The notes under the pieces: model-generated | What the model was told of the DNA's origin: nothing | The model's database searches: none | What the model saw: the letters and a program-made list of their open reading frames with translations, nothing else | Assembly: GCA_043819795.1 (NCBI GenBank) | Contig: JBDREN010000105.1 | Location: 1 to 54,514, forward strand | Reading direction: 5' to 3' | DNA: 54,514 bases | Origin: Elusimicrobiota bacterium | GTDB lineage: Bacteria; Elusimicrobiota; Elusimicrobia; UBA1565 | Shown here: one piece after another, positions 1 through 51,869 of the stretch | Layout of the letters: each line of letters starts with the position of its first letter | How positions within the stretch are numbered: the stretch's first letter is position 1 | Position numbers and translations under genes: made by a program

Positions 1-950
1 TTTGATGCTCACCCCGTTCGTCGAGGCGGTGTTGTTCGCGTCCTGGTCGTCATCGTCGGCCGAAGCGCTCAGGTCCGCGCCCTCCCCGTCCACGGCCACG
101 GCCACGGGGCACGGCCCGGCCAGGCCGGAGAGTCCGTCCGCGCACTCGAAGCGCACCTCCACGTCGACGTTGCTCCAGCCTTCCAGACCCGTGCCGGGAG
201 CGCTCGAGGCCGTGATGACCGGCGGGGTCCGGTCGATTTTGATCCCCTCCAGCGTCGCCGACGCGCTGTTCCCGGCCAGGTCCGCGACCTCGCCCGATGC
301 GCTAAGGTCCGCCCCCTCGCCCTCCACGGTCTCGGAGCCGGGACAGGCTCCCTCGGCCAGGCCCGAGCCGTTGTCGGAGCAGGCGAAGCTCACCGTCACG
401 TCGCCGCTGCTCCAGCCATCCTGCCCCGTCGCTGCGGAGCGCGAGGCCGTGATGCTGGGCGCCGTCCGGTCGATCTTGATCCCCTCAAGCGTCACCGACG
501 CGACGTTTCCGGCCAGGTCGGCCACCTCGCCCGACGCGCTCAGGTCCGCGCCCTCGCCCTCCACGGTCACGTCGCCGGGGCATGCGCCTTCGGCCAGGCC
601 CGAGCCGTCGTCGGAGCACACAAACGTCACCGTCACGTCCCCGTTGCTCCACCCATCCTGGCCCGTGGCCGCCGAGCTCGACGCCGCGATGGCGGGAAGC
701 ATCCGGTCGATTTTGATCCCCTCGAGCGTCACCGACGCGCTGTTGCCGGCCAGGTCGACGACCGTGGTCGAGAAGCTCAGCTCCGCGCCCTCGCCCGCGA
801 CCGGCTGCGGGTCCGCGCACGCGGGCTCGGGCAGGCCGTGGTTGTCGGAGCACTCCAACGTGATCGCCACGTCCCCGTTGCTCCAGCCATCCTGGCCCGT
901 GCCCGGCGCGCTGGAGACCACGACGGTGGGAGGCGTCATGTCGATCGTCA
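1..950 (-). repeat. At least 4 tandem ~237-bp (79-aa) Ig-like (OmpL47-type, DxAGN-containing) domain repeats at the C-terminal end of the visible giant ORF; the array may continue beyond the window
   Basis: Minus-frame translation gives repeated units ...TAPSITASRSAATGQDGWSSGDVTVSFACSDNGSGLAEGACPG..VEGEGADLSASGEVADLAGNSASATLEGIKIDR... The plus shadow ORF 2..1033 shows the same 79-aa periodicity. Confidence 0.7.
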
Positions 951-12900: not shown

Positions 12901-15900
12901 GTGGCTGACCATCTGCCCGCCGAAATTACCCAAACGGAGGCTGGAGGCGTCCCCTATGTCGACGCGATAGGACGTTTCCGACTCGGACCGGATGTAGCCG
13001 TCGGTGTACGGCCCGCTGTCGCCCGACGTGGACGGCGAGGAGACCGTGACCTCCGTCTGCGTGAAGCCCTCCACCGCGCTCCCGGCCGGCTTCGCCGCCA
13101 GCGTCCACGTGTAGCTCAGGGGCTGGCCGTCCGCGTCGGTGCTCCCGCTCCCGTCCATCGTGGCCACGGCCCACTGCGGCAGCTCCACGTCCGGCCCCGC
13201 GTCCGCCACCGGCGCGTTGTTGGCCGGCCGCAGGAAGTAGCTCACGCGCCTGGAGTTCGTGTCCGCGATGGCCATGTTCCCCTGGGGGTCGAAGGCCACG
13301 CCATGGCACCCGTTCAAGCTGGCCGCGGTCGGGGGCCAGGTTTCCCCGGTGGAGGTGAAATCGGCCTTTCCGACCACGCGCGAGGCGGACATGCCGTTCG
13401 AGAACGGCGGCCTGAACTCGAGGGCGCGGCCCACGTTCTCGGCCTCCACGACCCAGAGGCTGCCTTGCGCGTCGAACCCCACGTCCCGCGGATAGCGGAA
13501 CCGGCTCGCTTTGGTGTCGGCGACACTGGAGGTGAAGTTGTCCTGGCCGATGACCAGGTCCGCGCTCATCCCGCTGGCGAAAGGCGGGGAGAAGCGCATG
13601 ACGCGCCGGTTGTCGTTCTCGGCGACCCATAGGTTCCCCTCGGAGTCGAACGCCAGGCCGCGGGGCGAGTAGAGCGTGCTCGCGGTGGTGCCGTAGCCGC
13701 CTATGATGACGTCGGCGCTCATGCCGGTGCTCAGGGGCGCCTTGAAGCGGACCACGCGGTAGTTGCCCGTATCCGCCACCCACAGGTTCCCGTCCGGGTC
13801 GACGGCCACGCCCCAGGGGCCGGAGAGCTGGTCCGGGGCCCCGCCGGCGCCCCCCCAGCCGAAGTCCGCCCTGCCGATGACCATGTCCGCGTCCATCCTG
13901 TCCGTGAAGGGGGGGGTGAACCGCAGGACGCGGTGGTCCCTGTTGTCCACCACCCAGAGCCTTCCCGTGGAGTCGAACGCCATGCCCCTCGGCCAGAAGA
14001 ACCTGTTCGCCCCGCCGTAGCCGAAGCCGCCCAGAACGAGCGAGGCGTCCATGCCCCCGGCGAGCGGAGCGTCGTAGCGCAGCACCTCGCTCTTGCCCCA
14101 GTCGCTGACCCAGAGGTTTCCGGCGCTGTCGAACGCGACGGAATACGGATTGGACGAGCCCGCGTAGCTGGCGAAGTCCGGCTGGCCCACCACCAGCCCG
14201 GCCTCCTGGCCGTTCTGGAAAGCCCCGTCCGCGGCCGGAGGCAGGGCGTTCACGGTGAGCTCCAACGTATCCTCGACCGTGCCTCCCTCCCGGCCGTCCG
14301 AGACGGTCAGCCGCACCATGTAGATGCCCGCGGAATCCGCCACGAAGGCCGCCGTGGTTTCGCCCGGCCGCTGATGGACGACCGGAGCGCTGCCCTGGGG
14401 CGCGGACGCGACCCCCCATGTCAGCGTGACGGGGTCTCCATCGGCGTCGGCGCCGCTGCCGTCGACGACCACGAGCGCTCCCCGCGTCACCGTCTGGTCC
14501 GCGCCGGCCTCCGCCGTGGGCGGAGTGTTCGGAGGCAGCGTCGTCGCGCCCCCGAGGTCCGTGAAGGGCGTCTCCTCGGCGGTCTGGCCCTTGGCTTTGA
14601 CCCGGGCGTAATAAGCCGTATCCGAATCGAGCCCCGCGAAGGCGTGGCCGGCGTCCGTGATCCATCCGCTCTCCATCGGCGCCCCCGCGAAGCCGGGGTC
14701 GGCGGAGAGCTGCGCGAGGTACTGCACGCCCGCGGGATTCCCCGCCGCCGCCCACCTCACGGTGAGGGCATGGGCATCCAGGTGCGGGAAATCGTCAAGC
14801 GCCCCGGCGAAGGCCACCAGCCGCGCGTTGTTCCAATCGGCGACCCACAGGAGCCCCTCGTGGAAGGCGATCCCTATGGGGCTGGTCATACTGGCCGGAC
14901 CGCTGCCCCAGGCCCCGGAGACGAAATCGGTCTGCCCCAGCACCGAGGTGGCCGGCATGCCGTTGAAAAGGGGCGGGTCGAAGACGAGGACGCGGTGGGT
15001 GATGTTGTCGGACAAGAATACCTTGCCGGAGGGGTCGAACGCGATCCCGAGCGGGCAGCGCATGGTCGTCTGGTTGTCGTAGTAGTTGCTGACGACGAAA
15101 TCCCCCTGCCCCAGGACCAGAGCGGCGTCCATGCCGTCGGCGAAAGGCGGGCTGAACATGAGCGCCCGGTAGTTGCCGTTGTCCGCCACCCACACGTTGC
15201 CCGACGCGTCCACCGCGACCTGGAAGGCCCAGCGCATCCTGTTTCCGGCGCGGGCCTCGCCGCCCGAGGTGAAGTCCGCCTGGCCCAGGACCAAAGAAGC
15301 GTCCATCCCGTCCGAGAAGGGGGGGGTGAACTCGAGCACCCGGTTGTTGTAGGCGTCGGCCACCCACACGTTGCCGGAGGCGTCGGCCGCCACGTCGAAG
15401 GGCTGGTTCATCCCGCTCCGGGTCGTGGCCTCGCAGCAGGCGGTGAAGTCGGGCTGGCCGAGGACGACCGACGCGTCCATGCCGGACTCGAAGGGAGGGC
15501 TGAACATGAGCACCCGATGGTTGGATCTGTCCGCGACCCATAGGTTGCCGGAGGGGTCGAAGGCGAGGCCCATGGGCATCGAAAGCCTGTCGCGGTCCCG
15601 GCCGGCGGTGGAGGACGTGAGGTCCTCCTGCCCCAGGACGATCGTGGCGGCCCGGAGGCCGTCGTGCGGCGGCGGGAACATGGTCACGCGGTTGTGCTGT
15701 CCGTCCGCCACCCAGAGGTTGCCGGAGGAATCGAACGCGATGTCGGCGGGAGTGTAGACGCTGGTCGCGCTCGGCCCGAAACGGCTGACCGTGTCCAGGC
15801 CGGCTTGCCCCAGCACGGCCGCCTCCTCCTGCCCGTCCTCGAAGCGATAGAAAGGCGCGGGGGCTTGCGCCGGCGTGTATCCGCTCGTCGGGGCGGAAAA

Positions 15901-18900
15901 GCCGCTCTGCCCGAAGGGATTGGAGGCGATGACCCGGAGGTGATACTGGGTGTCGGGGGAGAGGTAGGTGGCCTTCGCGGCGTTCGTCCGCGAAGCGTAC
16001 GACAGGACCTCTCCCGAGAACGCCGGCGAGACCGAAGCCTGGAGCGTGTAGGACTCCGCGCCGGAGGAGGCGTCCCATCGGGCCTCGAGCGACGTCGCCG
16101 AGGCGCCGACGATCTGCAGCCCGGCGGGCGTCTGCGGAGGCACGGGCGTCGCCCCGACGGCGGTGGCGAAGGCGGTGGGGACCCCGGCCGAGGACTGCGC
16201 CCGCGGATCGGTCTCGGCGCCCTCCCCGTTGACGGCCCGGACGCGGACGGAGTATTCGGTCTCTGGCTCCAATCCGTCGATCGTGGCGCTGGCGGCGGTG
16301 TGGGCGTCGTCGAAGGATATCGCCACCACGTCGTGCGCCGCGAAGCCGTCCTTCGAATAGCTCACCTCGTAGCGGGTATGGCCCGGGTTGGACGCGTCGC
16401 CCCACGAAACGGAGAGGCTGGTCAATCCGGCCGGGGCGACCGTCAAATCCGCGGGGGGGTTGGCGTGGGTGTAGGCGTGCGGGTCATCCGAGAACGGCCC
16501 GGGGACGCCGGACTGGTCGAAGCTCACCACGGACCAGTGGTAGTGGGTGTTGGGCGCGAGGCCCGGGCCCGCGTCGTTCGAGGAGCTCCCCGGGTGGGGC
16601 ACGTCCGGCTCGACGCGGGTCAGCTCGGGGTCGGTCAACGAGGCGAAGGGATGGTCCCCGGCCGCCCGGTAGACGGCGTATTTGCCGACGTTCGGCTCGG
16701 TCCGCGGGGTCCAGCTCACCGTCGCCTCGCCGGGCCCCTGGACGCTCACGCTCACGGCGGTCACGGCCTCGGGCGGAGCGGCGGCCTTGAGCGCGAAGCT
16801 CTCGGTGGCCGTCTGGCCGTCGTTGTTGGTCGCGGTGAACTCGATCCGGTTGAGCGTCTCGGAAGGCGCCAGCCCCGTGATGCCCGCGACGGTCAGATAA
16901 TGCGGGTCCTTGTCCGTCGTCCCGCCGGAGGCCGGCTCCATGCTGAGTCCGGAGTCCGGAACTTCGGCATAGTGCGCGCCCCCGTCGACGGTGTAGCGGG
17001 CCGAGAAGGCGCCGCCCGCCTCGATCGCGAAGTCCGCGAAGTCCGCGAAGTCCTGCGCGATCTCCGCGGGGCTTCGGGCCGCGCCCAGGATGCGGAAGCT
17101 GTCGACGATCCCCCAGTTCTGGGTTCCTCCCCCGGCGTTGCCGATGTAGTTCACGTCCTGCGTCAGCTTGACCGAAGAGGTGCCCACGTGGTCCGCGTCG
17201 ATGTAGAAGAGGGTCTGGCCGCCGGTGCCGACCGCCGTCAGAAGGTGCCAGCCGGACAACGGGTCGACGTCGTAGTTGCAGGAATAGAACGCCCCGCTAT
17301 AGACGCCGAGAAGGCCGTCGTTCCGGACGAGGACGTGATGGTAGTTCGGCCCGTACTGGGTCAAGGTCCGCCAGCTGCCGTGGCTGGCCAGCGGGAATCT
17401 GGTCCAGGCCTGAATGGTCCAGTCCGAGCCCATCGGGACATCGGGGACGGAGACGTAGTCGGAGGAACTGTCGAAATTCAGGGCCTTGCCGAAGAGCCCC
17501 TCGGTCCACGCCGGAGGCCCGTTGAGGCTGCCGTTCTCGCCGTTGCCGGACGCGTCCGAGACCGAGGTCCCCGTCCCTTCGTCGAACTGCCACAGGCCCC
17601 TCGTCTGCCCGGCGACGGCCCCGAGCGGAGCGCCCGTGGCGACCATGGTCTCGCTCGGACGGTCCGCGAAGTCCTCCGCGATCTCCTCGGGAGTCCGGGC
17701 CGCGTCCAGGATGCGCACGCTGTCGACGGAACCCCAATTCTGGGTTCCTCCCCCGGCGTTGCCGATGTAGTTCACGTCCTGCGTCAGCTTGACCGAAGAG
17801 GTGCCCACGTGGTCCGCGTCGATGTAGAAGAGCGTCTGGCTGCCGGTGCCCACCGCCGTCAGAAGGTGCCAGCCGGACAATGGGTCGACGTCGTAGTTGC
17901 AGGAATAGAACGCCGCGCTATAGACCCCGAGAAGGCCGTCGTTGCGCACGAGGATGTGATGATAGTTCGGCCCGTACTGGGTCAAGGTCCGCCAGCTGCC
18001 GTTGCTCGCCAGCGGGAATTTGGTCCAGGCCTGAATGGTCCATTCGGAGCCCATCGGGATGTCGGGGACGCTGACGTAGTCGGAGGAGCTGTCGAAATCC
18101 AGGGCCTTGCCGAAGAGCCCGTCCGTCCACGCCGGAGGCCCGCTGAGGCTTCCGTTCGCACCGTTGCCCGAGGAGTCCGCCGCCGAGGCCCCGCTTCCCT
18201 CGTCGAACTGCCACAGGCCTCTCGTGTGTTCGGCGACGGCCCCGAGCGGAGCGCCCGCGGCCCCCGGCGCGGTCACGGTCGCGCGCGCGTAGTCCTCGTG
18301 GATCTGCTCCGCGGTGGCGGAGTAGTTCAGGATGCGCATCTCGTCCAGGAGCCCTTCATAGTACCCGTAGTAGTAGCTGAAACCGGAGACGGCGGCCGAG
18401 GGATAGACATTCGCTCTGGGGCTGGTCAAGCCGGTCCGCACCAGGGCCCCGTTGACGTACAGGTGCGGCCGCTTGTCCGCGTAGACCACCGCGATGTGCG
18501 TCCAGCCCGAGATGGCGGCGTTGTACACGAGCAAAGAAGGGATGTATTGGTGCCCGTGCTCGAAGACGCTGATCCCGTCGGTCCCGACCGAGACCCCCGC
18601 TCCCGCGTCGGCTCCCACGAATCCTCCGTGCACCGGGGCGATCGCGTAGCGCTGTCCCGAGAGCCCGGCATAGCCGGAGGTGGATTCCGCGGTGGCGCTC
18701 CGGGTCGCGGCGGGATAGGCCCAGAACTCGATCGTGAAGTTGTTGGGGGCGCCGGTGAGCAGGCCCCCGGCTCCGGCGCAGTCGTCTATCCCGTCGAAGG
18801 AAAGGGCCTCTCCGACCTTGCCGGCGGCCCACCCCGTCCCGTTCTGGAGGGTGAAGGCCGCTCCGTTTCCGGAGGCCTCCGAGGCCGCGGTCCCGGAGCC

Positions 18901-19182
18901 CTCGTCGAAATGCCAGAGGCCCAGGGTCCCCGGGATGTTCCGGAGCCGCGCGTCCGAGAGCCTGAGCCCCACGGCGGGGTCATGGGCCGTGATCCGGGCG
19001 GAATGGCTGATTCCGGCCGGAGAAGACGGCAGCATGGCGGTGTCCGCGCTCGCCCATTGCCCATCGGAGCCCAGGACCTGGGGGGAGGAGAACTCCAGCG
19101 CGGACGCGCGCGCTCCCCAAAGCACGCTGGCCGCGACCAGGACGACCGTCGACTGCAGCTTCCAATGTCTTTCGGATTTCAT
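1..19182 (-). CDS. Giant secreted multidomain surface/adhesin-like protein, 5' end complete, 3' end runs off window start (>6,390 codons): signal peptide, 3x LamG (concanavalin A-like), FN3 domains, PKD domains, Big_9/cadherin-like domains, >=6 NHL-type beta-propellers, C-terminal tandem ~79-aa Ig-like domains
   Basis: ATG at 19182 gives MKSERHWKLQSTVVLVAASVLWGARASA (signal peptide) with an AGGGA SD-like motif upstream. No minus-strand ORF in this frame (first base = 0 mod 3) is reported anywhere between 1 and 19182, so there is no in-frame stop; the chance ORF length at this GC is ~50 codons. Spot translations at ~18780-19080, 15661-15720, 9541-9600, 7141-7200, 6421-6480, 3241-3420 and 781-1380 all give coherent domain sequence. 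Examples: LWHFDEGSGTAASEASGNG...ALSFDGIDD (LamG), NLWVADGQHNRVTMFPPP (NHL), DLAGNSASVTLEGIKID (Ig-like). The track omits it because it has no stop within the window. Confidence 0.85.
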   Translation of the reverse strand, partial: MKSERHWKLQSTVVLVAASVLWGARASALEFSSPQVLGSDGQWASADTAMLPSSPAGISHSARITAHDPAVGLRLSDARLRNIPGTLGLWHFDEGSGTAASEASGNGAAFTLQNGTGWAAGKVGEALSFDGIDDCAGAGGLLTGAPNNFTIEFWAYPAATRSATAESTSGYAGLSGQRYAIAPVHGGFVGADAGAGVSVGTDGISVFEHGHQYIPSLLVYNAAISGWTHIAVVYADKRPHLYVNGALVRTGLTSPRANVYPSAAVSGFSYYYGYYEGLLDEMRILNYSATAEQIHEDYARATVTAPGAAGAPLGAVAEHTRGLWQFDEGSGASAADSSGNGANGSLSGPPAWTDGLFGKALDFDSSSDYVSVPDIPMGSEWTIQAWTKFPLASNGSWRTLTQYGPNYHHILVRNDGLLGVYSAAFYSCNYDVDPLSGWHLLTAVGTGSQTLFYIDADHVGTSSVKLTQDVNYIGNAGGGTQNWGSVDSVRILDAARTPEEIAEDFADRPSETMVATGAPLGAVAGQTRGLWQFDEGTGTSVSDASGNGENGSLNGPPAWTEGLFGKALNFDSSSDYVSVPDVPMGSDWTIQAWTRFPLASHGSWRTLTQYGPNYHHVLVRNDGLLGVYSGAFYSCNYDVDPLSGWHLLTAVGTGGQTLFYIDADHVGTSSVKLTQDVNYIGNAGGGTQNWGIVDSFRILGAARSPAEIAQDFADFADFAIEAGGAFSARYTVDGGAHYAEVPDSGLSMEPASGGTTDKDPHYLTVAGITGLAPSETLNRIEFTATNNDGQTATESFALKAAAPPEAVTAVSVSVQGPGEATVSWTPRTEPNVGKYAVYRAAGDHPFASLTDPELTRVEPDVPHPGSSSNDAGPGLAPNTHYHWSVVSFDQSGVPGPFSDDPHAYTHANPPADLTVAPAGLTSLSVSWGDASNPGHTRYEVSYSKDGFAAHDVVAISFDDAHTAASATIDGLEPETEYSVRVRAVNGEGAETDPRAQSSAGVPTAFATAVGATPVPPQTPAGLQIVGASATSLEARWDASSGAESYTLQASVSPAFSGEVLSYASRTNAAKATYLSPDTQYHLRVIASNPFGQSGFSAPTSGYTPAQAPAPFYRFEDGQEEAAVLGQAGLDTVSRFGPSATSVYTPADIAFDSSGNLWVADGQHNRVTMFPPPHDGLRAATIVLGQEDLTSSTAGRDRDRLSMPMGLAFDPSGNLWVADRSNHRVLMFSPPFESGMDASVVLGQPDFTACCEATTRSGMNQPFDVAADASGNVWVADAYNNRVLEFTPPFSDGMDASLVLGQADFTSGGEARAGNRMRWAFQVAVDASGNVWVADNGNYRALMFSPPFADGMDAALVLGQGDFVVSNYYDNQTTMRCPLGIAFDPSGKVFLSDNITHRVLVFDPPLFNGMPATSVLGQTDFVSGAWGSGPASMTSPIGIAFHEGLLWVADWNNARLVAFAGALDDFPHLDAHALTVRWAAAGNPAGVQYLAQLSADPGFAGAPMESGWITDAGHAFAGLDSDTAYYARVKAKGQTAEETPFTDLGGATTLPPNTPPTAEAGADQTVTRGALVVVDGSGADADGDPVTLTWGVASAPQGSAPVVHQRPGETTAAFVADSAGIYMVRLTVSDGREGGTVEDTLELTVNALPPAADGAFQNGQEAGLVVGQPDFASYAGSSNPYSVAFDSAGNLWVSDWGKSEVLRYDAPLAGGMDASLVLGGFGYGGANRFFWPRGMAFDSTGRLWVVDNRDHRVLRFTPPFTDRMDADMVIGRADFGWGGAGGAPDQLSGPWGVAVDPDGNLWVADTGNYRVVRFKAPLSTGMSADVIIGGYGTTASTLYSPRGLAFDSEGNLWVAENDNRRVMRFSPPFASGMSADLVIGQDNFTSSVADTKASRFRYPRDVGFDAQGSLWVVEAENVGRALEFRPPFSNGMSASRVVGKADFTSTGETWPPTAASLNGCHGVAFDPQGNMAIADTNSRRVSYFLRPANNAPVADAGPDVELPQWAVATMDGSGSTDADGQPLSYTWTLAAKPAGSAVEGFTQTEVTVSSPSTSGDSGPYTDGYIRSESETSYRVDIGDASSLRLGNFGGQMVSHVYVGFDASFISPGASIVKATLKMYVWGGYLAEIGPAIVDLVDFGEALEFEDDSEPALVSNAATFLSEDYPAAGYHPVDVTEAVREALSSGLVPQFRIRAANEYAVGAQRLVYFSPSERSAAERPLLEITISPAWNRAQFQADAYGAYELQLTVSDGSLSSVDTAVVTAVRNDRPVADAQTAQAVRDGALPITLTASDREGAELGFAIVSPPSHGTLEGTPPNVTYLPAPGYLGADGFSFKVNDGVVDSDEAAVGISVVPLPEAPPALLAQLPPSGAAGMHGSYELAADRSGNWYVGQHSCCIMKYDIRGDLLLKWGAGGGGAGQFGTIGGMAFDSAGNVYVAGASNHRVQKFDAGGNFLMQWGAQGSGDGQFETPTGIGVDAAGNVYVLENAGQRVQKFSSGGGFLGKWSVGAGMQALGVDSTGGVFVLGGGSLLKYDSSGNQLAAWSLHGEDANGLAVDRFDRVYAAYRPVPAEDPVVRKIKRFTSDGLLSAEWRTDSDYVGNLAVDASGIVYAGHWHGEGKVVRYTAEGGLIDEFGGTSPGSLAGPSGVAVDASGNVYVADTNHNQVQKFDPAGRFVARWGREEGYSGGGDGQFNRPMDVAVDGSGNMYVVDFYNCRVQKFDAGGNFATKWGGGCGSGDTQFYLPSGIAVDAGGNVYVMDQYNNKVKKFDPNGNLLASWGAPGAGNGEFDRPERVAVDASGNIVVADTRNHRVQVFDPNGVFLSKWGVPGDRNGQLEYPAGLALDSSGNVYLTDAGNPLDPGQNNSRVQKFDAAGGLLTTWGTLGTDAGEFRYARDAAVGPDGRVYVADNENNRVQVFGAGAPPPVAHAQAVETQEDAAVAITLTGTGQGLAYTVVSGPEHGSLSGAAPNLSYTPQSGYYGFDAVVFKVSAGGVESAPAAAAIVVRNADDPPSFDAIADQASPMDGPAETVPIGGVSAGYNDPESVGMSAVSSDPSVVPHPVITGAGAVRSLSYQPAPGRSGTVTVTVTADDGRPPGDTFSRSFAITVYEAAPAAPSGLGIAGATATSLEAEWATSAGAETYTVEASVAAGFTGEVLSQLVETNRASVIGLSPDTLYYVRVKAANSGGESSFCAAASGTTSVYAPAPYYSFQTGQAAQAVLGQADASSNAAFGPSRASINSPVDMAFDASGNLWVVEMENHRILMFEPPHTGLRDATLVLGQAGFDFIDAGVSERRFWYPESIAFDPHGNLWVADRQNNRVLMFKPPFGTDMAASLVLGQDSFTTRSYVYGNDLSRMYQPAGVAADGAGNVFVADRHNSRVLLFSPPFSNGMAATRIIAHYEYVARPASLYYPNHVAVDRLGRLWVADYNHNRAVRFSPPFEDGMSADLVLGNPDLYASDYQTTRTATKKTWGIAIDPTGKVFVGDETNHRVMVFDPPLSDGMPAAAALGQADFTSGASGLGPDRLDDPRGAAFHDGTLWVADYNNRRLLAFAGTLDNFPYVNTFSLVVRWAAPGNPPGTQYLVELSDDPGFPAPLQSGWITDTSHTFPGLRKETAYHARVKAKGQMGVETTYTLLGGTTTRSDNAPPAADAGPDRTVDQGELVVVEGGGSDPDGDPVSIAGWEIVSSPGGGPVLHHRAGETAAAFVADSLGVYTLRLTVSDGREGGTDQDTVEITAHAPPAASHGAFQNGQDASVVLGAPDYAAFGSVNALRTLFDGSGNVWMSDGSKHRVLRYDAPLGTGAEPSLVLGQENLADGGSGLAADRLNSPNGMAFDPAGRLWVADSGNNRVLRFTPPFGDGMDADLVLGQAGFEANAAGSGAGELDGPRDVGFDGNGRLWLADTRNHRVLRFSPDPLQGFSSAMSAELVIGQSDFGLSGAGTTAGAMNSPRAVAFDASGDLWVSERDNHRILRFRPDPVNGFSTGMSADLVIGQDGFTSNTRYPYGPTRLSYPDAIAFDAEGSLWVAGSDHSRVFGFRPPFETGMAASRVLGRTEFNTTGCGRSQSRICEVYGVAFDRLGNLAVADTGNYRVMYFVRPPNIAPVADAGPDLELPQWAVAMVDGSGSYDAEERPISYTWSILTKPAGSAVSGFTQTENVISTPGASGPYLDGYIQFAGATPDGVNTGYTLFAGDFGGNRPVRSFMGFDVSFMPPGATVERAILKLYVSSAYDVDIGPVIVDLVDFGDTLELTDDAQPPVLAGVATFLGSAVRGGYTSLDVTAAVREALSRGLAPQFRIRATNEVSIPTQELVYIVPAEGDAAQRPRLEITVSPPVDKAQFQADAYGTYEVRLTVSDGWLSTDDTALVTAVRNDRPVADPQTAQAVQNGARQITLTGSDNEGAALAFAVVTQPSNGTLEGTPPGVTYLPALGYLGGDGFTFTVNDGVVDSVPAAVNISVVPPPESPPPFLAQIPRKAVKFSAFKIATDNAGNIYVGQNYCCVHKHDPAGNHLKTFGSFRYLGGVGVDSSGDYVYVSDRDNNRIIKYDSEGNQLLTWGSAGTGNGQFNGGPFGIDVGADGNVYVGEYAGGARIQKFDAQGQFLKSWAGGNYIQSVAVDSRNDVYATGVSMGINRFDSEGNLLASWAAPGGYPDLAVDRFSRVYVVARQGEWPYYSGVKKYSSTGQLLKEWDAFNDPATTVNDATADIHVGPSGIVYVPNYSLNTVRQWDTEGGFIEDWGGGVDGSLNAPNAVAMDSSGNIYVADTNNDRIQKFDPMGRFLAKWGKAGGGHGSGDGEFYRPIDVAVDAAGNIYVADFYNYRIQKLGPTGEFITKWGNNGSGDGQFSLPSGLAVDSANNVYVADRNNRVQKFDSNGTFLLKWGSSGTGDGQFNEPKRIAVNASGNIVVSDPRNNRVQMFDPNGTFLGKWDSYGSRKGQIKYPYGVGTDSSGNVFITEPRNPYNPSDNNARVQKFDASGSHLTEWGGYGSGQGQFIDPLDVASGAGGRICVADAGNNRVQIFGSGVSFPAAEALSVQTQENTAVALTLRGTGQAPVYSVVSGPDHGSLSGTPPNLTYTPETGYYGFDYVRFKVSDGGLESDTALASIVVLNVNNPPFFDEIADQAAPMDGPEATVAITGVFAGYNDPETVSFSAVSSDPLIVPDPAITSSGDTRTLSYQPAAGRSGTVTITVTADDGQAQDSIFTRTFDITIYEGPPPAPTGLSASASGAGGLGFHWNAVASAQSYTLEVSASADFTGEVHTFRTDATSVDDGGFIPDTLYSARVQAVNSMGAGAFAGPASARTLASRPVPARSFETGQNADLVLGQVDFNTKEYCNVSNGQPATQTSMCGPIGVAFDTSGNLWVSDYFSNRVMRYDPLQAGGLQSASLVLGQPDFTSTGRGTDRRTFRNPYGIALDNAGNLWVADSENHRVLRFDRPFSTHMEASLVLGQADFTTTGAATTQSGFNRPIGVAVDASGRMWVADMMNNRVLRFSPPFSDHQAADLVLGQPDFTSSGVRHLGKDLYQPRGVSVDADGNIWVADGSHLRVLRFSPPSGNYEEPNLVLGKETFTSPFPTAPTQTNTYYTHSLAFDASGKAYVVDAGHHRVLVFEPPFSNGMPASTVLGQPDFQSEIYTTAQNRLDAPREMAFDGSGALWFADHSNRRVLSFEGTPDSFRDARSQRVTAAWGGNRNPPGTEYSAQLAADPGFASPMESGWITDLSHTFTGLDPETGYYARVKARNQDGIETPYTDLGGATTLPPNRPPTVDAGADQTVDVGDLVALSGTAFDEDPEDAVSYGWTLKDSAGDPVSVEGADTLTPSFTPQKADTYTAELAASDGKEDASDTALIHALGTFESADEVNGKPELSLTAALEIAISAVDTAGDGAYLLAASHSQDLFPVGRLYDVGPHGASLDPAGALRMCYDPQVLADNGVAAGEVFLYHYAEPAWQELSAALDEESGCLSAELSELASIFGLFAVDRTSPAVAAMVPAGALQNVASPQFALAFSDTGSGAAPATLTASLDGSPRDYFVLAEGAGSMTLLFGLGEEGQRIEGEPTAETTYAMAEGERAAAFEMADRTGNKGTASASVTIDMTPPTVVVSSAPGTGQDGWSNGDVAITLECSDNHGLPEPACADPQPVAGEGAELSFSTTVVDLAGNSASVTLEGIKIDRMLPAIAASSSAATGQDGWSNGDVTVTFVCSDDGSGLAEGACPGDVTVEGEGADLSASGEVADLAGNVASVTLEGIKIDRTAPSITASRSAATGQDGWSSGDVTVSFACSDNGSGLAEGACPGSETVEGEGADLSASGEVADLAGNSASATLEGIKIDRTPPVITASSAPGTGLEGWSNVDVEVRFECADGLSGLAGPCPVAVAVDGEGADLSASADDDDQDANNTASTNGVSIK
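1400..16000 (-). repeat. Intragenic tandem super-repeat of the giant gene, ~6.3-kb period (~2,100 aa): two full copies (~9,700-16,000 and ~3,400-9,700) plus a partial copy (~1,400-3,400). Each unit reads FN3 - NHL propeller - FN3-like - PKD - NHL propeller - PKD - lectin-like 'DLVDFG' module - Big_9 - NHL propeller (NHRVQKFD type) - Big_9
   Basis: DNA/protein correspondences at constant offsets of ~6,280-6,360: 15860<->9575<->3290 (FN3/'APAP(F/Y)Y' junction), 14533<->8335<->1975, 14290<->8030, 12619<->6316, 12510<->6210 (~75% nt identity where compared). The antisense shadow ORFs 1390..6207 and 9064..13632 are visibly homologous. Confidence 0.75.
17027..17053 (-). repeat. 9-bp x3 perfect tandem repeat (gcgaagtcc)3 encoding DFADFADFA inside the giant gene
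   Basis: Read directly in sequence. The corresponding position in the preceding LamG copy has a single EDFAD. Confidence 0.9.
17090..18340 (-). repeat. Near-identical tandem duplication (period ~621 bp = 207 aa) giving LamG domains 2 and 3 of the giant protein
   Basis: 17111-17290 closely matches 17731-17910 (e.g. gttctgggttcctcccccggcgttgccgatgtagttcacgtcctgcgtcagcttgaccgaagaggtgcccacgtggtccgcgtcgatgtagaagag in both). The minus shadow ORFs 17297..17737 and 17918..18214 are homologous. Confidence 0.8.
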
Positions 19183-28037: not shown

Positions 28038-28475
28038 TTGCTGCCTCGGGTTCAGCAGGAGGGGCTGAGGACGTCGAGTCCGCCGCCTCCTGAGTCCCGT
28101 CGTGTGTCAGATGCAGGCTCTCGTCCTGATGATGATGAACCGGGCATGGTCAGTCGAGCGGTTTCCTTGGTCGGATCAAAAACGCGGCGAGGAAGCAGTT
28201 CCGCCAAAGACGATGGGTCTGGCTCAGGCTCATCGGACTCGAAGGGATTGGGCGCAGCCAAACGGGCGGCGCTGCATGGGGTAATATTCGGGGGCATTGT
28301 CGGTCTAGTAGCTGGGGGGGTCAGTCTTGGCCCCCCGGGCGCTGTCGGTGGAGGTCTCCTGGGCGTCGTCGTCGGGGCGGCGGTGGGGTGGTATTATGGC
28401 CACCATCATGACGCGATTTGGAGTGGAATAGGCAGGGATCTGAACGAGTTCGAACGGGACCAATTCGGGAACTAG
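28038..28475 (+). CDS. Small protein with hydrophilic Ser/Gly/Asp-rich N-terminal region and C-terminal glycine-zipper transmembrane segment
   Basis: TTG start with strong SD AAAGGGGAGG 5 nt upstream. C-terminus GVIFGGIVGLVAGGVSLGPPGAVGGGLLGVVVGAAVGWYYGHHHD has repeated GxxxG. Lower GC than the host. Confidence 0.55.
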   Translation: MLPRVQQEGLRTSSPPPPESRRVSDAGSRPDDDEPGMVSRAVSLVGSKTRRGSSSAKDDGSGSGSSDSKGLGAAKRAALHGVIFGGIVGLVAGGVSLGPPGAVGGGLLGVVVGAAVGWYYGHHHDAIWSGIGRDLNEFERDQFGN

Positions 28476-28482
28476 AAGAAAC

Positions 28483-28980
28483 TTGGCCGCATGGGGAGAA
28501 AGCGTGAAGGAAAACGTGACTACTGAAGCGACGATTAGGCTTAAGCGATTGGCCCGTTCATTCGCGGCGTTTGGCTTCTTTCTTATGGTCCCATGGGCGT
28601 CATATCTTTCAACTCTCCTTCTGATCAGGAACCGGGTGATTATTGATACTGATTCGGCGGCGTTACTGATTAAGGTTATAACAGCAGTAGCGATGATGTC
28701 GTTTTTCATGCTTCCCCTGCTCGTTCTTGCTTCATCTGCACAATTCTATTGGGCCTTTCGAGATAACTTGGCTTGGTCCAAGGTGCTTCGATTCGGAATG
28801 CTTCGGGGGTTGCCTATAATGGCTGGCATACTCATGGTGTTTGTCTTGTCATTGAAGGCCAGCGGAGCGGGGTGGTTGGCGTATCTTTTCTCTTTTGGAA
28901 TCGGCGTGATTATTTACTCAGTTTGGCTTATACGCAAGGACCAGGCAGTATTGGCTACTGAGACCAAGCAGGGAATATAG
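28483..28980 (+). CDS. Small 4-TM integral membrane protein (hypothetical; possible GTG start at 28504 with GGGAGA SD)
   Basis: Hydrophobic segments AAFGFFLMVPWASYLSTLLLI, ITAVAMMSFFMLPLLVLASS, GLPIMAGILMVFVLSL, WLAYLFSFGIGVIIYSVWLI. ~45% GC against ~70% flanks. Confidence 0.55.
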   Translation: MAAWGESVKENVTTEATIRLKRLARSFAAFGFFLMVPWASYLSTLLLIRNRVIIDTDSAALLIKVITAVAMMSFFMLPLLVLASSAQFYWAFRDNLAWSKVLRFGMLRGLPIMAGILMVFVLSLKASGAGWLAYLFSFGIGVIIYSVWLIRKDQAVLATETKQGI

Positions 28981-33464: not shown

Positions 33465-33501
33465 CGCGCGCGAAGGGGAATGCGGCGTCTCCTTCAGCCT
33501 G

Positions 33502-34809
33502 TCAATCCTTCTTCAGCCAGTTTCTAATAGCCGGAAACGAAGTGATCCTATCTACCGAATCCTGCAGCGCTTGGTTCTGCTGCCGTAGCTGTCGGATCTC
33601 GTCCTGCATCGCGGCGACTTCTTCGGGCGTCATGCCCGGCTCTCCCTGCGGACCTTGAGGCCCGCCTGGCCCCGCTGGGCCAGTATCTCCAGTATCTCCT
33701 TTCAGACCGGCAGGACCTCGAGGGCCCGCCGGTCCTTCAGGACCGATCGGACCGGCGTCGCCCGTGTCTCCTTCGGGTCCGGCTGCGCCCGCGGGTCCCG
33801 CAGGGCCTTGGGTGCCCGGATTCGTAATGATCAGCGTATCTTTCGCTTTGGCCCCGAAATTGTCCATGACCGTGAGCTCGATCAGCTCTTCCGCATAACC
33901 GTGAGCGTTCATGGTGACAATGTCGCCTTCGGCGACAACGGGATTGTCCGCGTCGGAGAGGTTTCTCCACACCCAGTAGACGACCTCGCCATCCGGGTCA
34001 TAGGACAGACTCCCGTCCAGCGTTACCTCCTCGCCGGCGGAAGCTTTTACGTCCGGCCCCGCGTTTGCTATCGGCGGCTCGGTTTCCGCCACTTCATATC
34101 CTAGGCCCTGTAGACCATTTTGATAATACGCTTGGATCTCTTCCTGGGTCAAAGCCCGGTTGAAGATGGCCACTTCGTCGAGCAAGCCGTCGAAATAGCA
34201 TCCGGGAGATCCGCCTCTCCCGCCGATGAACAGCCTGCTTGTATGTGTTACTATCCTGGTCGAAAGCTCTGCTCCATAAAGAACCCCATCCAAATACAAT
34301 CTGATGTTGCTCCCGTCATATGTCCCGACGACGAAATGCCAGTTGCCGTCGTTGATATCCGCTCCTTCGGTGAATAGGATGTCGAAACCATTGGCATCGC
34401 CCACGAGCCAAGTCAATTCCGACGCGTCATTGTATTTAGTCCCAAGTCTATAACCATTTCGCCCATTATCATGAGCGGAAGAGACCATGTCATCATTGGC
34501 CCCGCCGTCGCTCTTGAACCAAACGGCGATGCTCGGATGCGCCACTCGGATAGGAGAGGCGGTCCCCAGGTCGACATAATCATTCGCGCCGTCGAAGCTC
34601 ATCGCTCCGCCGACTTGGCCATCGGCCCATATGGCGCCGTGGATCGTGCCATGGCTGTCGTAGCCGGAACTGTCAATCGCGACCGATCCAGAGCCCGCGT
34701 CAAGCCTCCAATACCCCATCATGCCTTCTTGTGCTTCGGCTGTCCCAGCCAGAGCTAGAAGCAGCATGACTCCAGCCGCCGACCCCAGTCTTTTCAGTGT
34801 TTTGGCCAT
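33502..34809 (-). CDS. Secreted LamG (concanavalin A-like) - PKD-like - collagen-like triple-helix (21 G-X-Y triplets) - C-terminal coiled-coil protein
   Basis: Start taken at the internal ATG 34809, with GGAG SD 8 nt upstream and signal peptide [26 protein letters not shown]. LamG: [22 protein letters not shown]...[17 protein letters not shown]-like: [29 protein letters not shown]. Collagen: [61 protein letters not shown]. Confidence 0.7.
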
Positions 34810-34866
34810 GGATGGGCTCCCTTCCAGCGATTCCGGTTTTCGCTTCCGAAAGTCTGCTGTCACCAG

Positions 34867-34895
34867 ATTATAGCCCCATGTCGCTGACAATTCAA
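34867..34895 (-). promoter_or_regulatory. Sigma-70-like promoter for the collagen-like gene: -35 TTGAAT, 17-nt spacer, -10 TATAAT (minus strand)
   Basis: Reverse complement of 34867-34895 reads TTGAATtgtcagcgacatggggcTATAAT, ~55 nt upstream of the ATG. Confidence 0.5.
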
Positions 34896-35101
34896 TGACA
34901 ACCCGGCGACACTGAATGAAAAATCCCTCTTGCTTTACAATCTCTTTTTCATCATGTCAGGGGCCAGGCCGGAAACTTTATCCGGAAGCCTGGCCCGATA
35001 TCCGGGGCAGCTTCGGTGGGGGGATGAAATCGCGCCCTTCGGGGGATCTTCGAGGCCGCGCGTGTCTGGAGACCTGCGGCGCGGATCGTCCGGCGTGCGG
35101 T

Positions 35102-36758: not shown

Positions 36759-38066
36759 TTACCGCGAAACCAGCTTGAGGGCGTCGATCATCCCGGAGCC
36801 CTGCTGAACGTCGGGCACGTCCGGGATCTTCGTCGCCGCGCTCGTCAGAGCCGCGCGGATCTCCTCGACGCCGTGCGCTCCCTGCGCGGCCACCGCCAGC
36901 GCGGCGAGCCCGGCCACATGCGGCGTGGCCATCGAGGTGCCGGAGATGCTCCGGTAGCCGCCGCCCATCCAAGTCGAGTTCACGGACACCCCGGGGGCGA
37001 TCAGCTCGACCTCCGGTCCGCGGCTCGAGAAGTAGGCGACCCTGTCACTGGAGTCCGAGGCCGCGATGGCGATCGCCTCGGGGTAGGCGGCCGGGAAGCC
37101 GACGCTCCTGCCCGAGTTGCCGGCTGCCGCGATGATGGCGACGCCGGCCTCGGCGGCCGCCTTCACCGCGTCGGCGAGCGACTGGTTGCCCCGCGAGGCC
37201 CCCAGGCTGAAGTTGGCGACGGCCATCCCGTTGGCGGCGCACCACTGGATGCCCTCGATGACGTCGGCGAATGTCCCGCTGCCGCTGGCGCTGAGGACCT
37301 TGACGCCGTAGAGCTGGACGTCGGGCGCTATCCCGACGACGCCCGCGTCGTTGTCGATCGCGGCGATCGTGCCGGCCACATGGCTCCCGTGGCCGTTGTC
37401 GTCCTTGAAGGAGACCGTGGGGTCGATCGCGTTGAATCCGCCGGTGACGTTCAGTTCGGGATGCTCGAAGTCGATGCCGGTGTCCACGACGGCCACCTTG
37501 ACGCCCGCTCCCCGCGTGACCCCCCATGCCTGGGAAGCGTTGACGCGGGAGATGCCCCAGGGGGTGGTCTGTCCCTGCTCTTCCTGGGGAAGGATGTCCG
37601 GGCCGGCGGCCGCGGGGGGCGCCTCGGCGACGAGCCAGTTCTGGATGAAATCCTCGTCGATGCGCTTGACCTCGGCGGCGGCCAGGAGGCTCGCCTCGAA
37701 GCTCTGCATCCGAGTCTGGGGAGCCATGATCGCCACGGCGTTGATGATCCAAAGGTTGTCGGTGACCAGGGCGCCCGCTTTCCGCACGAGGCTGAGCTGG
37801 CGGACCTTCGACGTGCCCTTATGGAAAACGACGATCCGGCGCGCGACGCTGTTGGGCGTCACGATCGGCCACGAGGTCTCGAGGGTCCCGGCCTCCAGGT
37901 CCGACCCCTCCATCGATCCGGCGGTGTCCCGGGCCTGGTCGACGATCTCCTGGACGCTGAAGTCCAGCTGGTCGAAGTCCGGCTTGCCGTCCTCGGCCGA
38001 GGCCGTCAGAGCGACGCCCACGAGCAGCGCCGCGCACGCCAACCACGTGAACTTATTCTTAAGCAT
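36759..38066 (-). CDS. Secreted subtilisin-like serine protease (S8 family) with N-terminal propeptide
   Basis: Catalytic triad contexts VAVVDTGID, HGSHVAGTIAA, GTSMATPHVAGLAAL. Start chosen at ATG 38066 (MLKNKFTWLACAALLVGVALTASA) with GAGGTG SD; the track uses GTG 38072. Confidence 0.9.
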   Translation of the reverse strand: MLKNKFTWLACAALLVGVALTASAEDGKPDFDQLDFSVQEIVDQARDTAGSMEGSDLEAGTLETSWPIVTPNSVARRIVVFHKGTSKVRQLSLVRKAGALVTDNLWIINAVAIMAPQTRMQSFEASLLAAAEVKRIDEDFIQNWLVAEAPPAAAGPDILPQEEQGQTTPWGISRVNASQAWGVTRGAGVKVAVVDTGIDFEHPELNVTGGFNAIDPTVSFKDDNGHGSHVAGTIAAIDNDAGVVGIAPDVQLYGVKVLSASGSGTFADVIEGIQWCAANGMAVANFSLGASRGNQSLADAVKAAAEAGVAIIAAAGNSGRSVGFPAAYPEAIAIAASDSSDRVAYFSSRGPEVELIAPGVSVNSTWMGGGYRSISGTSMATPHVAGLAALAVAAQGAHGVEEIRAALTSAATKIPDVPDVQQGSGMIDALKLVSR

Positions 38067-38183
38067 ACCCACCTCTGCGTTTTCTGCGCTTCCGGCGACA
38101 TCCGGGCCGGTTCCCGGTCACTATAACATATTTTCGGCGCGAAAATCCGGCTCGGGGCGTCGCGCACGGGATCGAACGACGCG

Positions 38184-50156: not shown

Positions 50157-51869
50157 ATGGCCAGCATTTCCAAGCAGGCGTTGGGCGACCTTATCGAGAT
50201 GGGGAAAGAGCACGGCTTCCTGACGCTCGAGGAGATCAACCGCTCCCTGACGGCGGGGCACATGTCCTCCGATGAGATCGACGGCCTCATGTCGACCCTC
50301 GAGGACCTGGGCATCGAGGTGGTCAGCCGCAAGAAGTTCAAGTCCCATCAGGCCGAGAAGGAGGCCTATACCGAGGAATGGGAGTCCACGCCCGACGTGT
50401 CGAACTCCATCCGGATGTACCTCTCCGAGATGGGCAAGGTACCCCTTCTCAACCGCGAGGAGGAGGTGATGCTCGCCCGGAACGTCCGCGAGCGCGAGAA
50501 GGAGCTGCGGCTTTTGGTCCTGGAGTCGCCGATCACGATGCGCGAGGTCCGCAACTGGGAGACCCTCATCGCCCTGCAGGAGATGACGCCGAAGGAGCTC
50601 ATGCCCCGCGGCCGCAAGACGAACTACGAGCTGGCGGCCATGCGCCGGAAGATGAGGGCGGTCTCGCAGTTCATCACGAAGTCCGAGAAGAAGATAAACG
50701 CCCTTCGGGACAAGCTCGCGAAGAAGAACCTGCGCGACAAGCAGCGCCAGAAGCTCACGAGGTCGATCGAGGCCCATAACAAGGAGATCGTCAAGAAGAT
50801 CATCGGCCTCAACCTCAACCAGGACAAGATCAAGCGCCTCACCAACAAGATCAAGAGCGCGGCCGCGAAGATCAAGGAGTGCCTCCACGAGATCGAGGGC
50901 TATCAGAGGCGCTACGGAGCCTCCTACCGTCAGCTCAACACCTACGCGAGCCGGGTAGCGAAGCGGAAGATGACCGCCGGGGCTTTCAAGGCGAAGACCG
51001 GCTACGCGCCCTCCGCCCTCGACGCGGCTCTGGCCAACATGAAGGCCGTCTCGGAGCGCCTGCAGCGCCTCTTGCACACGATCCCGGTCCCGACCGAGCA
51101 GTTCCTCCAGCTCGATCGCAAGATCCGGACGCTGGAGGAGCAGATCCTCAAGGACAAGCTCAAGCTCATCAAGGCCAACCTGCGGCTGGTGGTGTCGATC
51201 GCGAAGAAGCACGTCAACTCGAACCTCGAGCTCTCCGACCTCATCCAGGAGGGGGGGCTGGGGCTCATGAAGGCCGTCGAGAAGTTCGAGTACAAGCGCG
51301 GTTTCAAGTTCTCGACCTACGCGACCTGGTGGATCCGGCAGTCGATCAACCGGGCGATCGCCGACCAGGCGCGCACGATCCGCATCCCGGTCCACATGAA
51401 GGAGCTCATCTCGAAGCTGATGAAGGTGACGCGCCGCCACCGCCAGGAGCACGGCCGCGAGCCCACGCTCGAGGAGTACACGCGCCGCCTGCATATCACG
51501 GTGGAGAAGGTGAAGACCGTCCTCAAGATCATGCAGGAGCCGATATCGCTCGCGACGCCGATCGGCGAGGACGAGGACTCCTACCTGGAGGACTTCATCG
51601 AGGACAAGGCCGGGCCCGCCCCCTCGAGCGCGGCGCAGTCCTTCCTGCGGAGCAAGGAAGTGGACAAGGTCCTCGCCACGCTGACCGACAGGGAGTCCAG
51701 GATCATCAAGCTGCGCTTCGGCATCGGCACCGGCTACCCCAGGACGCTCGAGGAGGTCGGGAAGATCTTCAAGGTGACGCGCGAGCGCGTGCGCCAGATC
51801 GAGTCGAAGGCCGTGCGCAAGCTGCGCCACCCGTCGAGGTCCCGCGGGCTGCGCGACTACATGGAATGA
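50157..51869 (+). CDS. rpoD: RNA polymerase primary sigma factor RpoD (sigma-70)
   Basis: …[54 protein letters not shown]…[41 protein letters not shown]. Confidence 0.95.

Follow-up and report, generated by a model that had tools for sequence, protein, structure and literature searches.

The locus considered here raises the question of why a small gene for a collagen-like protein, of unusual base composition, sits among the core genes of an Elusimicrobiota bacterium, and what its product might do. The window, i.e. the whole stretch of DNA that was analysed, is contig JBDREN010000105.1 of assembly GCA_043819795.1 in its full length of 54,514 bp, and it carries core chromosomal genes; the target gene occupies positions 33502-34809 of the minus strand. 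Our preferred answer, which we hold with a probability of roughly 0.55, is that the gene specifies a Sec-exported bacterial collagen-like protein that forms a trimeric LamG-PKD lectin stalk, and that it entered this genome by horizontal transfer, alone and accompanied by its promoter. The domain content, the unbroken Gly-X-Y run, the heptads, the existence of a family with a variable stalk and the foreign composition of the gene can be read directly from the data.

Direct translation of 33502-34809 (−) gives an intact open reading frame (ORF) of 435 aa, running from an ATG at 34809 to a stop codon within 33502-33534, and this is exactly the protein, frame and start that an earlier inspection of the DNA (the sequence-only reading) had given. 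An identical protein is present at NCBI, annotated as a LamG-like jellyroll fold domain-containing protein from a metagenome-assembled genome (MAG) of an Elusimicrobiota bacterium. A Shine-Dalgarno-like element, GGAAGGGAG, can be read from the sequence at 34817-34825 (−), 7 nt 5′ of the ATG. Further upstream, at 34867-34895 (−), lies the sigma-70-type promoter-like site TTGAAT-17-TATAAT that the same reading had picked out, agreeing with the consensus at 10 of 12 positions; five sites of this kind occur in the region, against 0.7 expected from shuffled sequences, and a full-length gene for the housekeeping sigma-70 factor RpoD is found in the same window (50157-51869). We prefer the ATG at 34809 to an upstream TTG at 34890 as the likelier start, because the −10 hexamer would fall inside the longer ORF's extension and the homologues open directly with a signal peptide.

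Translation together with a Pfam scan bore out the domain order proposed earlier, namely signal peptide, LamG, PKD-like domain, collagen and coiled coil. Residues 1-26 (34732-34809, −) constitute a Sec-type signal peptide, judged by inspection, with a basic n-region, a hydrophobic core and an AEA cleavage motif before QE; it has no lipobox Cys, and an equivalent N-terminus is found in all full-length members of the family discussed below. It is followed, at approximately residues 29-235 (34105-34725, −), by a LamG or concanavalin-A-like jelly-roll head identified by Pfam, AlphaFold2 (AF2) and Foldseek. Pfam Laminin_G_3 matches residues 73-226 with 104.9 bits (cut-off 27.6; E 5.8e-30), and AF2, supplied with a 67-sequence alignment, modelled the domain with a predicted local distance difference test (pLDDT) score of 85-97. 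Foldseek placed this model with a probability of 1.0 among the lectin-like HCN jelly rolls of clostridial neurotoxins, which is consistent with a weak Pfam match to Toxin_R_bind_N, and with a TMt of 0.79 next to the carbohydrate-binding domain 4 of the arabinanase AbnA. With a profile score above threshold and a jelly-roll model, the head belongs to the Laminin_G_3 / concanavalin-A-like lectin-glucanase superfamily.

The second globular domain, a K319L-like PKD (Ig-like) domain, spans residues 244-331 (33817-34080, −) and ends in ITNPG, a sequence conserved in the family. Its profile scores are marginal, both for K319L-like_PKD (PF22352; 29.7 bits against a cut-off of 27, residues 250-329) and for PKD_4 (PF18911; 29.5 bits against 27). 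They are backed by the AF2 model, in which this part is a beta-sandwich with a pLDDT of ~76-91, and by the wide occurrence of the family's PKD profile, so that membership in the PKD / K319L-like Ig class appears sound. The model in question comes from a first AF2 run on a three-sequence alignment with an overall pLDDT of 51.6, used for the PKD domain and the C-terminal helix only.

The collagen-like segment comprises residues 332-394 (GTQ...GMT; 33628-33816, −). Its Gly-X-Y periodicity is unbroken over 21 triplets, as claimed at the outset; this count includes the junction triplet GMT and becomes 20 without it. At the glycine frequency of the target, 21 in-phase glycines have a probability of ~3e-15. 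Pfam Collagen (PF01391) matches residues 335-390 with 31.6 bits (cut-off 27.2), which places the protein in the bacterial collagen-like class. Pro occupies the X position in 12 of the 21 triplets, and the run holds nine charged residues, one KGD motif and one GPR. The DNA that encodes it has no tandem repeat beyond a 9-bp unit present 2.2 times, from which we conclude that the run is not the outcome of a recent tandem expansion. As expected, the collagen part has no confident fold in the monomer AF2 model, the pLDDT of residues 334-392 being below 50.

Residues 395-425 (33535-33627, −) are a predicted alpha-helical coiled coil of four heptads that opens with a TPEE helix N-cap. The heptad pattern is clean over the C-terminal 41 residues, with V, I, N and V at the a positions and M, L, L and I at the d positions, and AF2 places a helix at residues 395-424; on both counts the coiled coil of the sequence-only reading stands. 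The heptad-repeat helix adjoining collagen is thus present and conserved, with an a/d pattern that could be read as that of a dimer or of a trimer. Its core, in which a is beta-branched or Asn and d is Leu, recalls the dimeric pattern of GCN4, and Asn at a favours dimers. A sequence search of the Protein Data Bank (PDB) with the tail alone returned generic or designed coiled coils only and is uninformative on the oligomeric state. The protein finishes in a Pro-kinked, basic (Lys-rich) tail, which with the stop codon takes up 33502-33534 (−; 11 residues); it is nearly identical to the tail of one relative (L048) and aligns with the LPQLKKK motif of other family members.

Homologue searches were dominated by matches to the collagen repeat: among just 8,000 candidates, 3,989 proteins reached E ≤1e-3. 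Bacterial collagen-like proteins as such are therefore very common, and the 'uncommon' of the sequence-only reading has to be restricted to this particular architecture. Two of the matches, P0002 (450 aa) and P0004 (408 aa), share more than the collagen repeat with the target, and when the three are aligned, conservation is seen to lie in the C-terminal module and not in the LamG head. This module consists of a PKD domain with the motif AHGYAEELI that ends in I[TMK]NPG, a (GXY)n run, and G[IMV]TPEE opening the heptad-repeat tail, and the target carries all three motifs. The LamG head is swapped between family members, judging from the heads' sequences, which fall into at least two dissimilar types.

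A motif-guided scan of 185,579 species genomes yielded a single further locus (L004, 418 aa), in a MAG of Candidatus Omnitrophota, and a similar scan of JGI metagenomes yielded four (L044, L045, L046 and L048). With the fragments P0390 and P0391 the family found so far amounts to about ten sequences, the target included. The target's PKD domain is 54-68% identical to those of P0002, P0004, L004, L044, L045 and L046; in the partial L048 it is 76% identical over 38 aa and the tail, ITSFPAIKNWLKKH, is a near-match to that of the target (64% identity). One member, at L046 1650-2135 (+), is a protein of 161 aa made up solely of PKD, four GXY triplets and coiled coil, with neither signal peptide nor LamG.

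The stalk varies in length within this family. Members contain 4, 4, 4, 9, 16, 21, 24 and 29 triplets with no interruptions, and in each of those with 9 to 29 triplets the glycine periodicity is perfect while the X and Y residues are otherwise divergent. The coiled-coil tails differ in length by 7 or 14 residues, that is by multiples of the heptad; the register is conserved, and in nearly all members the TPEE N-cap comes directly after the last glycine triplet.

Two wider profile searches do not serve as a census. HMMER with the family PKD profile against 1.84 billion representatives returned 32,459 proteins, indicating that the PKD type is widespread, and was swamped by giant multi-PKD proteins; the profile of the coiled-coil tail, run against 5.8 billion proteins, gave three short fragments and missed known members. 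A literature search on bacterial LamG and collagen-like proteins, and on Omnitrophota and collagen, found no description of the architecture. The LamG-PKD-(GXY)n-coiled coil family is rare and, in the literature searched, so far undescribed.

The base composition of the gene sets it apart from its surroundings, a point that, like the small family with its 4 to 29 triplets, had escaped the sequence-only reading. A GC profile reveals a low-GC islet of ~1.6 kb (~33475-35050), comprising the target gene and its upstream region, in which GC is 0.49-0.65 against ~0.68-0.72 outside; the edges of the islet coincide with the gene and its promoter. The target has a GC of 0.58 and a GC at third codon positions (GC3) of 0.62, compared with a GC3 of 0.93 in both flanking genes and 0.80-0.95 in native genes. 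Its relatives are all in contigs of 38-47% GC, and the 58% of the target is intermediate relative to the ~45% of their genes, a value that would fit either some time of residence in this genome or a donor of middling GC. The position of the islet between high-GC native genes argues for horizontal acquisition, and on compositional grounds we conclude that the target probably arrived by horizontal transfer in the recent past, as one gene that brought its promoter along. Direct or inverted repeats that might be insertion scars were sought at the islet edges and nothing convincing was found. Within the one contig the islet is flanked left and right by native high-GC sequence, which makes an assembly chimera unlikely.

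From these features we infer that the chains trimerise and form a triple helix, that the protein passes beyond the cytoplasmic membrane, and that it binds a ligand and is anchored; these steps could be fitted together as follows. The chain would be exported via Sec, and the C-terminal, parallel coiled coil would bring three chains into register and nucleate a triple helix that zips up over the 21 collagen triplets from the C-terminal towards the N-terminal end, the direction that is established for collagens (PMC11923368). The product would be a rigid, homotrimeric, lollipop-shaped stalk of ~18-22 nm (~18 nm of collagen and ~4.6 nm of coiled coil), at the far end of which three LamG-PKD arms would give trivalent avidity for what is probably a glycan or a polymer on a surface. 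The target would thus act as an adhesin or lectin-like binding protein, and its Lys-rich, Pro-kinked tail may keep the foot of the stalk attached to the cell; a role of the tail in membrane anchoring is conjecture. Strict glycine periodicity in the members with 9 to 29 triplets is what one would expect of such a stalk, since a triple helix demands Gly and a mere linker does not. The steps of 3 and 7 in the lengths of collagen and coiled coil, the same as in the trimeric phage protein EPclA, lend support to the trimeric model, and the TPEE N-cap directly after the last glycine triplet to a stalk nucleated by the coiled coil. By analogy, a role as adhesin or surface filament can reasonably be inferred.

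Several observations weigh against this model. The conserved a/d core resembles the dimeric GCN4 pattern more than that of a textbook trimer. Three members have only four triplets, too short for a stable triple helix, so that the collagen part appears dispensable for the module, and even 21 triplets may be only marginally stable in the absence of hydroxyproline. The target has no recognisable anchor in the form of an LPXTG motif, a lipobox or a transmembrane segment, and its last 12 residues, considered as an amphipathic helix comparable to the anchor of the Legionella adhesin Lcl, have a hydrophobic moment no higher than shuffled sequences, a fraction of 0.10-0.25 of which reached the observed value. 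In a diderm a Sec signal alone leads just to the periplasm. Lastly, a conserved gene neighbourhood was sought around the family loci and none was found that points to function.

The first two of these points find their best expression in a dimeric coiled-coil protein, in which the Gly-X-Y run would be a polyproline-II-like, extended spacer between PKD and helix and no triple helix would form. The a/d core, with V/I, I and N at a and M, L and L at d, is GCN4-like, and the members with four triplets show that the module works without a real collagen domain. A spacer, however, has no need of strict glycine over 9, 16, 21, 24 and 29 triplets in independent members. To our knowledge, every characterised protein in which collagen adjoins a coiled coil, the collectins included, is trimeric. 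Among them are EPclA (PMC3368898) and Lcl (PMC11162425), whose collagen abuts the coiled coil. We therefore regard the dimer as an unlikely alternative to a trimeric stalk, although it is the one that survives best.

Somewhat less probable still is derivation from a phage, with the target as a tail-fibre or receptor-binding gene left in the chromosome as a moron or remnant. PHROGs returned tail-fibre families over the collagen region and virion structural proteins over LamG, the composition of the gene is foreign, and the combination of collagen and coiled coil is common in phage fibres (PMC3368898). These PHROG matches, however, cover single domains or low-complexity repeats only, and the target and all its full-length relatives carry Sec signal peptides, for which virion proteins have no need. 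No phage genes lie beside the target, whose neighbours are a cation diffusion facilitator (CDF) transporter and a response regulator, or at any related locus. A scan of IMG/VR with the family motifs was likewise negative, none of the 38 returned loci carrying the family module; they contain generic PKD domains, with ≤55% identity over short partial alignments and ≤40% over most of the domain, compared with 54-67% over nearly the full length within the family.

On much the same improbable footing we place the proposal that the target is a recently acquired passenger, poorly expressed or functionless, whose domains no longer serve the host. The GC3 of 0.62 against ~0.9 in the host, the isolation of the gene in an islet without partner genes and the existence of a truncated relative (L046) lacking signal peptide and LamG would all suit such a gene. 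The 435-codon ORF is intact, though, and equipped with a signal peptide, a Shine-Dalgarno element and a near-consensus promoter, and its intermediate GC would fit either a period of residence here or a mid-GC donor.

The giant protein ~15 kb away, to which the sequence-only reading had likened the LamG head of the target, is real. Its reading frame, at 1-19182 (−), continues past the end of the contig and gives a product of more than 6,394 residues, with a signal peptide, three Laminin_G_3 domains, fn3, NHL propeller repeats by the dozen, domains of the Big_9/cadherin type and K319L-like PKD. The statement that the LamG of the target is of the same type as the giant's N-terminus is correct at the level of the Pfam family and goes no further, since the domains are 25-29% identical (E 2e-10) while unrelated metagenomic LamG proteins reach up to 38%. 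The PKD domains of the two proteins share at most 46% identity over 36 aa, and the giant has native codon usage, with a GC3 of 0.91 against 0.62. That target and giant LamG/FN3/NHL protein form one adhesion apparatus is very improbable in spite of their common Laminin_G_3 and K319L-like PKD domains and signal peptides, given this low identity in LamG and PKD, at least ten unrelated core genes in between, very different codon usage, and relatives of the target that occur with no such giant gene nearby. With LamG identity low, closer LamGs elsewhere, diverging GC3 and the intervening core genes, the sequences suggest nothing that would link the two evolutionarily or functionally.

Besides these two genes the window contains genes for CysS, a SpoU methylase, HrcA-DnaK-DnaJ and DnaG-RpoD, together with a CDF transporter, a response regulator, a DsbA-like protein, an S8 peptidase and an O-antigen ligase. 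The CDF transporter gene is convergent with the target, the two stop codons being 37 bp apart; an intrinsic terminator was sought in this gap and nothing convincing was seen. Upstream of the target is the gene of a receiver-only response regulator. An Rfam scan of the window gave no RNA families. A second small low-GC islet, at 28038-28980 (+), has a GC of 0.48-0.62 and a GC3 of 0.54-0.60 and contains two ORFs of 145 and 165 aa, both membrane-protein-like and one Gly-rich, between an S46 peptidase gene and a Yip1-domain gene; it may be another foreign insertion. Positions 467-702 of the P0004 contig (L003) are 72% identical in DNA to 51169-51404 of the window, within rpoD. This match is due to sigma-70 being a conserved protein and does not argue for kinship of the organisms.

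Of the genes seen beside family members none is conserved, each occurring once or twice: a prepilin-like gene (L004), an MshEN gene (L003), S8 peptidases (in L001 and in the window) and membrane proteins of the PMT_2 or TPR type (L004 and L046). In the Omnitrophota MAG, a PMT_2 glycosyltransferase gene and a prepilin-type (N_methyl) gene lie upstream of the family member (L004 3256-5114), and an MshEN-domain gene lies upstream of P0004 (L003 4331-4816). From these unconserved neighbours one might weakly suspect a connection with glycosylation, or with the machinery of type IV pili or of type II secretion. In the window (36759-38117, −) and again beside P0002 (L001 2619-6398), no more than ~2 kb separate the collagen-like gene from a Peptidase_S8 subtilase gene, a proximity that may be coincidental. 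The truncated member of L046 begins at the stop codon of an upstream TPR membrane-protein gene.

The two contigs that carry P0002 have repeats of ~75-86 bp with 98-100% identity in intergenic positions on both sides of the gene and its neighbours (L001 658-732, 2219-2304 and 6442-6524; L002 3053-3127, 3758-3844 and 5539-5580), and the downstream neighbours of the gene differ between L001 and L002. The repeats may represent a repeated intergenic element linked to rearrangement. On an ENA contig of 673 bp a protein of 109 aa, P0392, has N-terminal transmembrane segments and the C-terminal sequence ENRYLLEQLPQLQKKIDELESQ, which is a near-exact match to the C-terminal motif of L044, P0390 and P0391 with a non-significant E of 5.6. 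The coiled-coil tail could have in P0392 its partner, or its docking site, in the membrane.

Bacterial collagen-like proteins are known as adhesins, as fibres of spores and other surfaces, and as hydroxyproline-free scaffolds for biomaterials. The target is a modest variation on this theme and leaves the field's understanding of such proteins unchanged; what is new is the domain order, N-terminal heads with a C-terminal predicted trimeriser, which is undescribed in the literature searched. The occurrence of the same module with 4 to 29 triplets is a natural series, and offers a ready system for determining the minimum length of a non-hydroxylated triple helix clamped by a coiled coil. Recombinant collagens would gain a compact, naturally occurring tag for nucleation should the last 44 residues turn out to trimerise. 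From its composition the target would also illustrate cleanly how one gene can pass between candidate phyla.

A wider and doubtful scenario, which we offer as speculation, would make the family a prokaryotic counterpart of collectins and of the fibril-associated collagens with interrupted triple helices (FACITs), with the 4 to 29 triplets and the heptads acting as a fast-evolving ruler for how far swappable lectin heads extend from the cell. Ultra-small, host-associated bacteria resembling Omnitrophota might use it to attach to partner cells, with P0392 as the membrane dock, and the gene might have passed horizontally to Elusimicrobiota of the same habitat.

Among known systems, streptococcal Scl1/Scl2 and Bacillus BclA resemble the target in presenting a globular domain on an uninterrupted, hydroxyproline-free GXY stalk, and they matched it weakly through the collagen repeat. 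The Scl proteins differ in their N-terminal helical V domain and LPXTG anchor, and BclA in its C-terminal, trimeric head of the C1q/TNF type. The Scl1 and Scl2 models of NCBIfam (NF038329 and NF038330) gave 45.8 bits against a cut-off of 325 and 34.9 against 400, in the repeat only, and the target has no LPXTG.

In the animal collectins (SP-D, MBL) and FACITs, a collagen stalk next to a short trimeric coiled coil joins heads of the lectin or LamG type into multimers. The FACITs combine an N-terminal LamG-like head with a C-terminal helical trimeriser, as in collagen IX with its NC4 domain of the LamG/TSPN type and its trimeric NC2 coiled coil; a construct of the latter (PDB 5ctd) was a weak match to the target (E 0.007). 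Collectins differ in having C-type lectin heads placed C-terminal to the neck, and animal collagens in being hydroxylated and much longer than the segment of the target. The resemblance is one of design by analogy, with no homology beyond the repeats.

EPclA, from a prophage of E. coli O157:H7, has been found by experiment to be trimeric, with the coiled coil as its trimerisation module, and within the EPcl family collagen lengths differ in multiples of 3 and coiled-coil lengths in multiples of 7 (PMC3368898). EPclA-D and the target family have in common a collagen segment adjoining an alpha-helical coiled coil and the same 3/7 length steps. The EPcl proteins, however, belong to phage tail fibres, contain PfN and PfC domains and lack a signal peptide, and their coiled coil precedes the collagen whereas that of the target follows it; for the target family neither phage domains nor a phage setting were seen, and none of its members was found in the viral contigs of IMG/VR. 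As a candidate phage collagen-like tail fibre the target lacks phage-fibre terminal domains and a tail module.

The best functional analogue is Lcl of Legionella pneumophila, in which a signal sequence is followed by a 30-residue amphipathic helix or coiled coil with an additional affinity for the bacterial surface, by a collagen stalk and by a head that binds glycans, and which is a lollipop-shaped trimer secreted by the type II secretion system (T2SS) (PMC11162425). The polarity is reversed, the helix of Lcl being N-terminal and its head C-terminal; the head is a DUF1566 trimer and not LamG plus PKD; no sequence homology exists outside the GXY repeats; and T2SS dependence and binding of glycosaminoglycans (GAGs) have been demonstrated for Lcl alone. 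Against the NCBIfam model for Lcl (NF046116, adhesin_Lcl) the target scored 38.5 bits with a cut-off of 500, and Pfam found no DUF1566. Both are nonetheless Gram-negative proteins with a Sec signal in which a helix with a Lys-rich surface, a collagen stalk of variable repeat number and a globular head are put together; the trimer has been shown experimentally for Lcl and is a proposal for the target.

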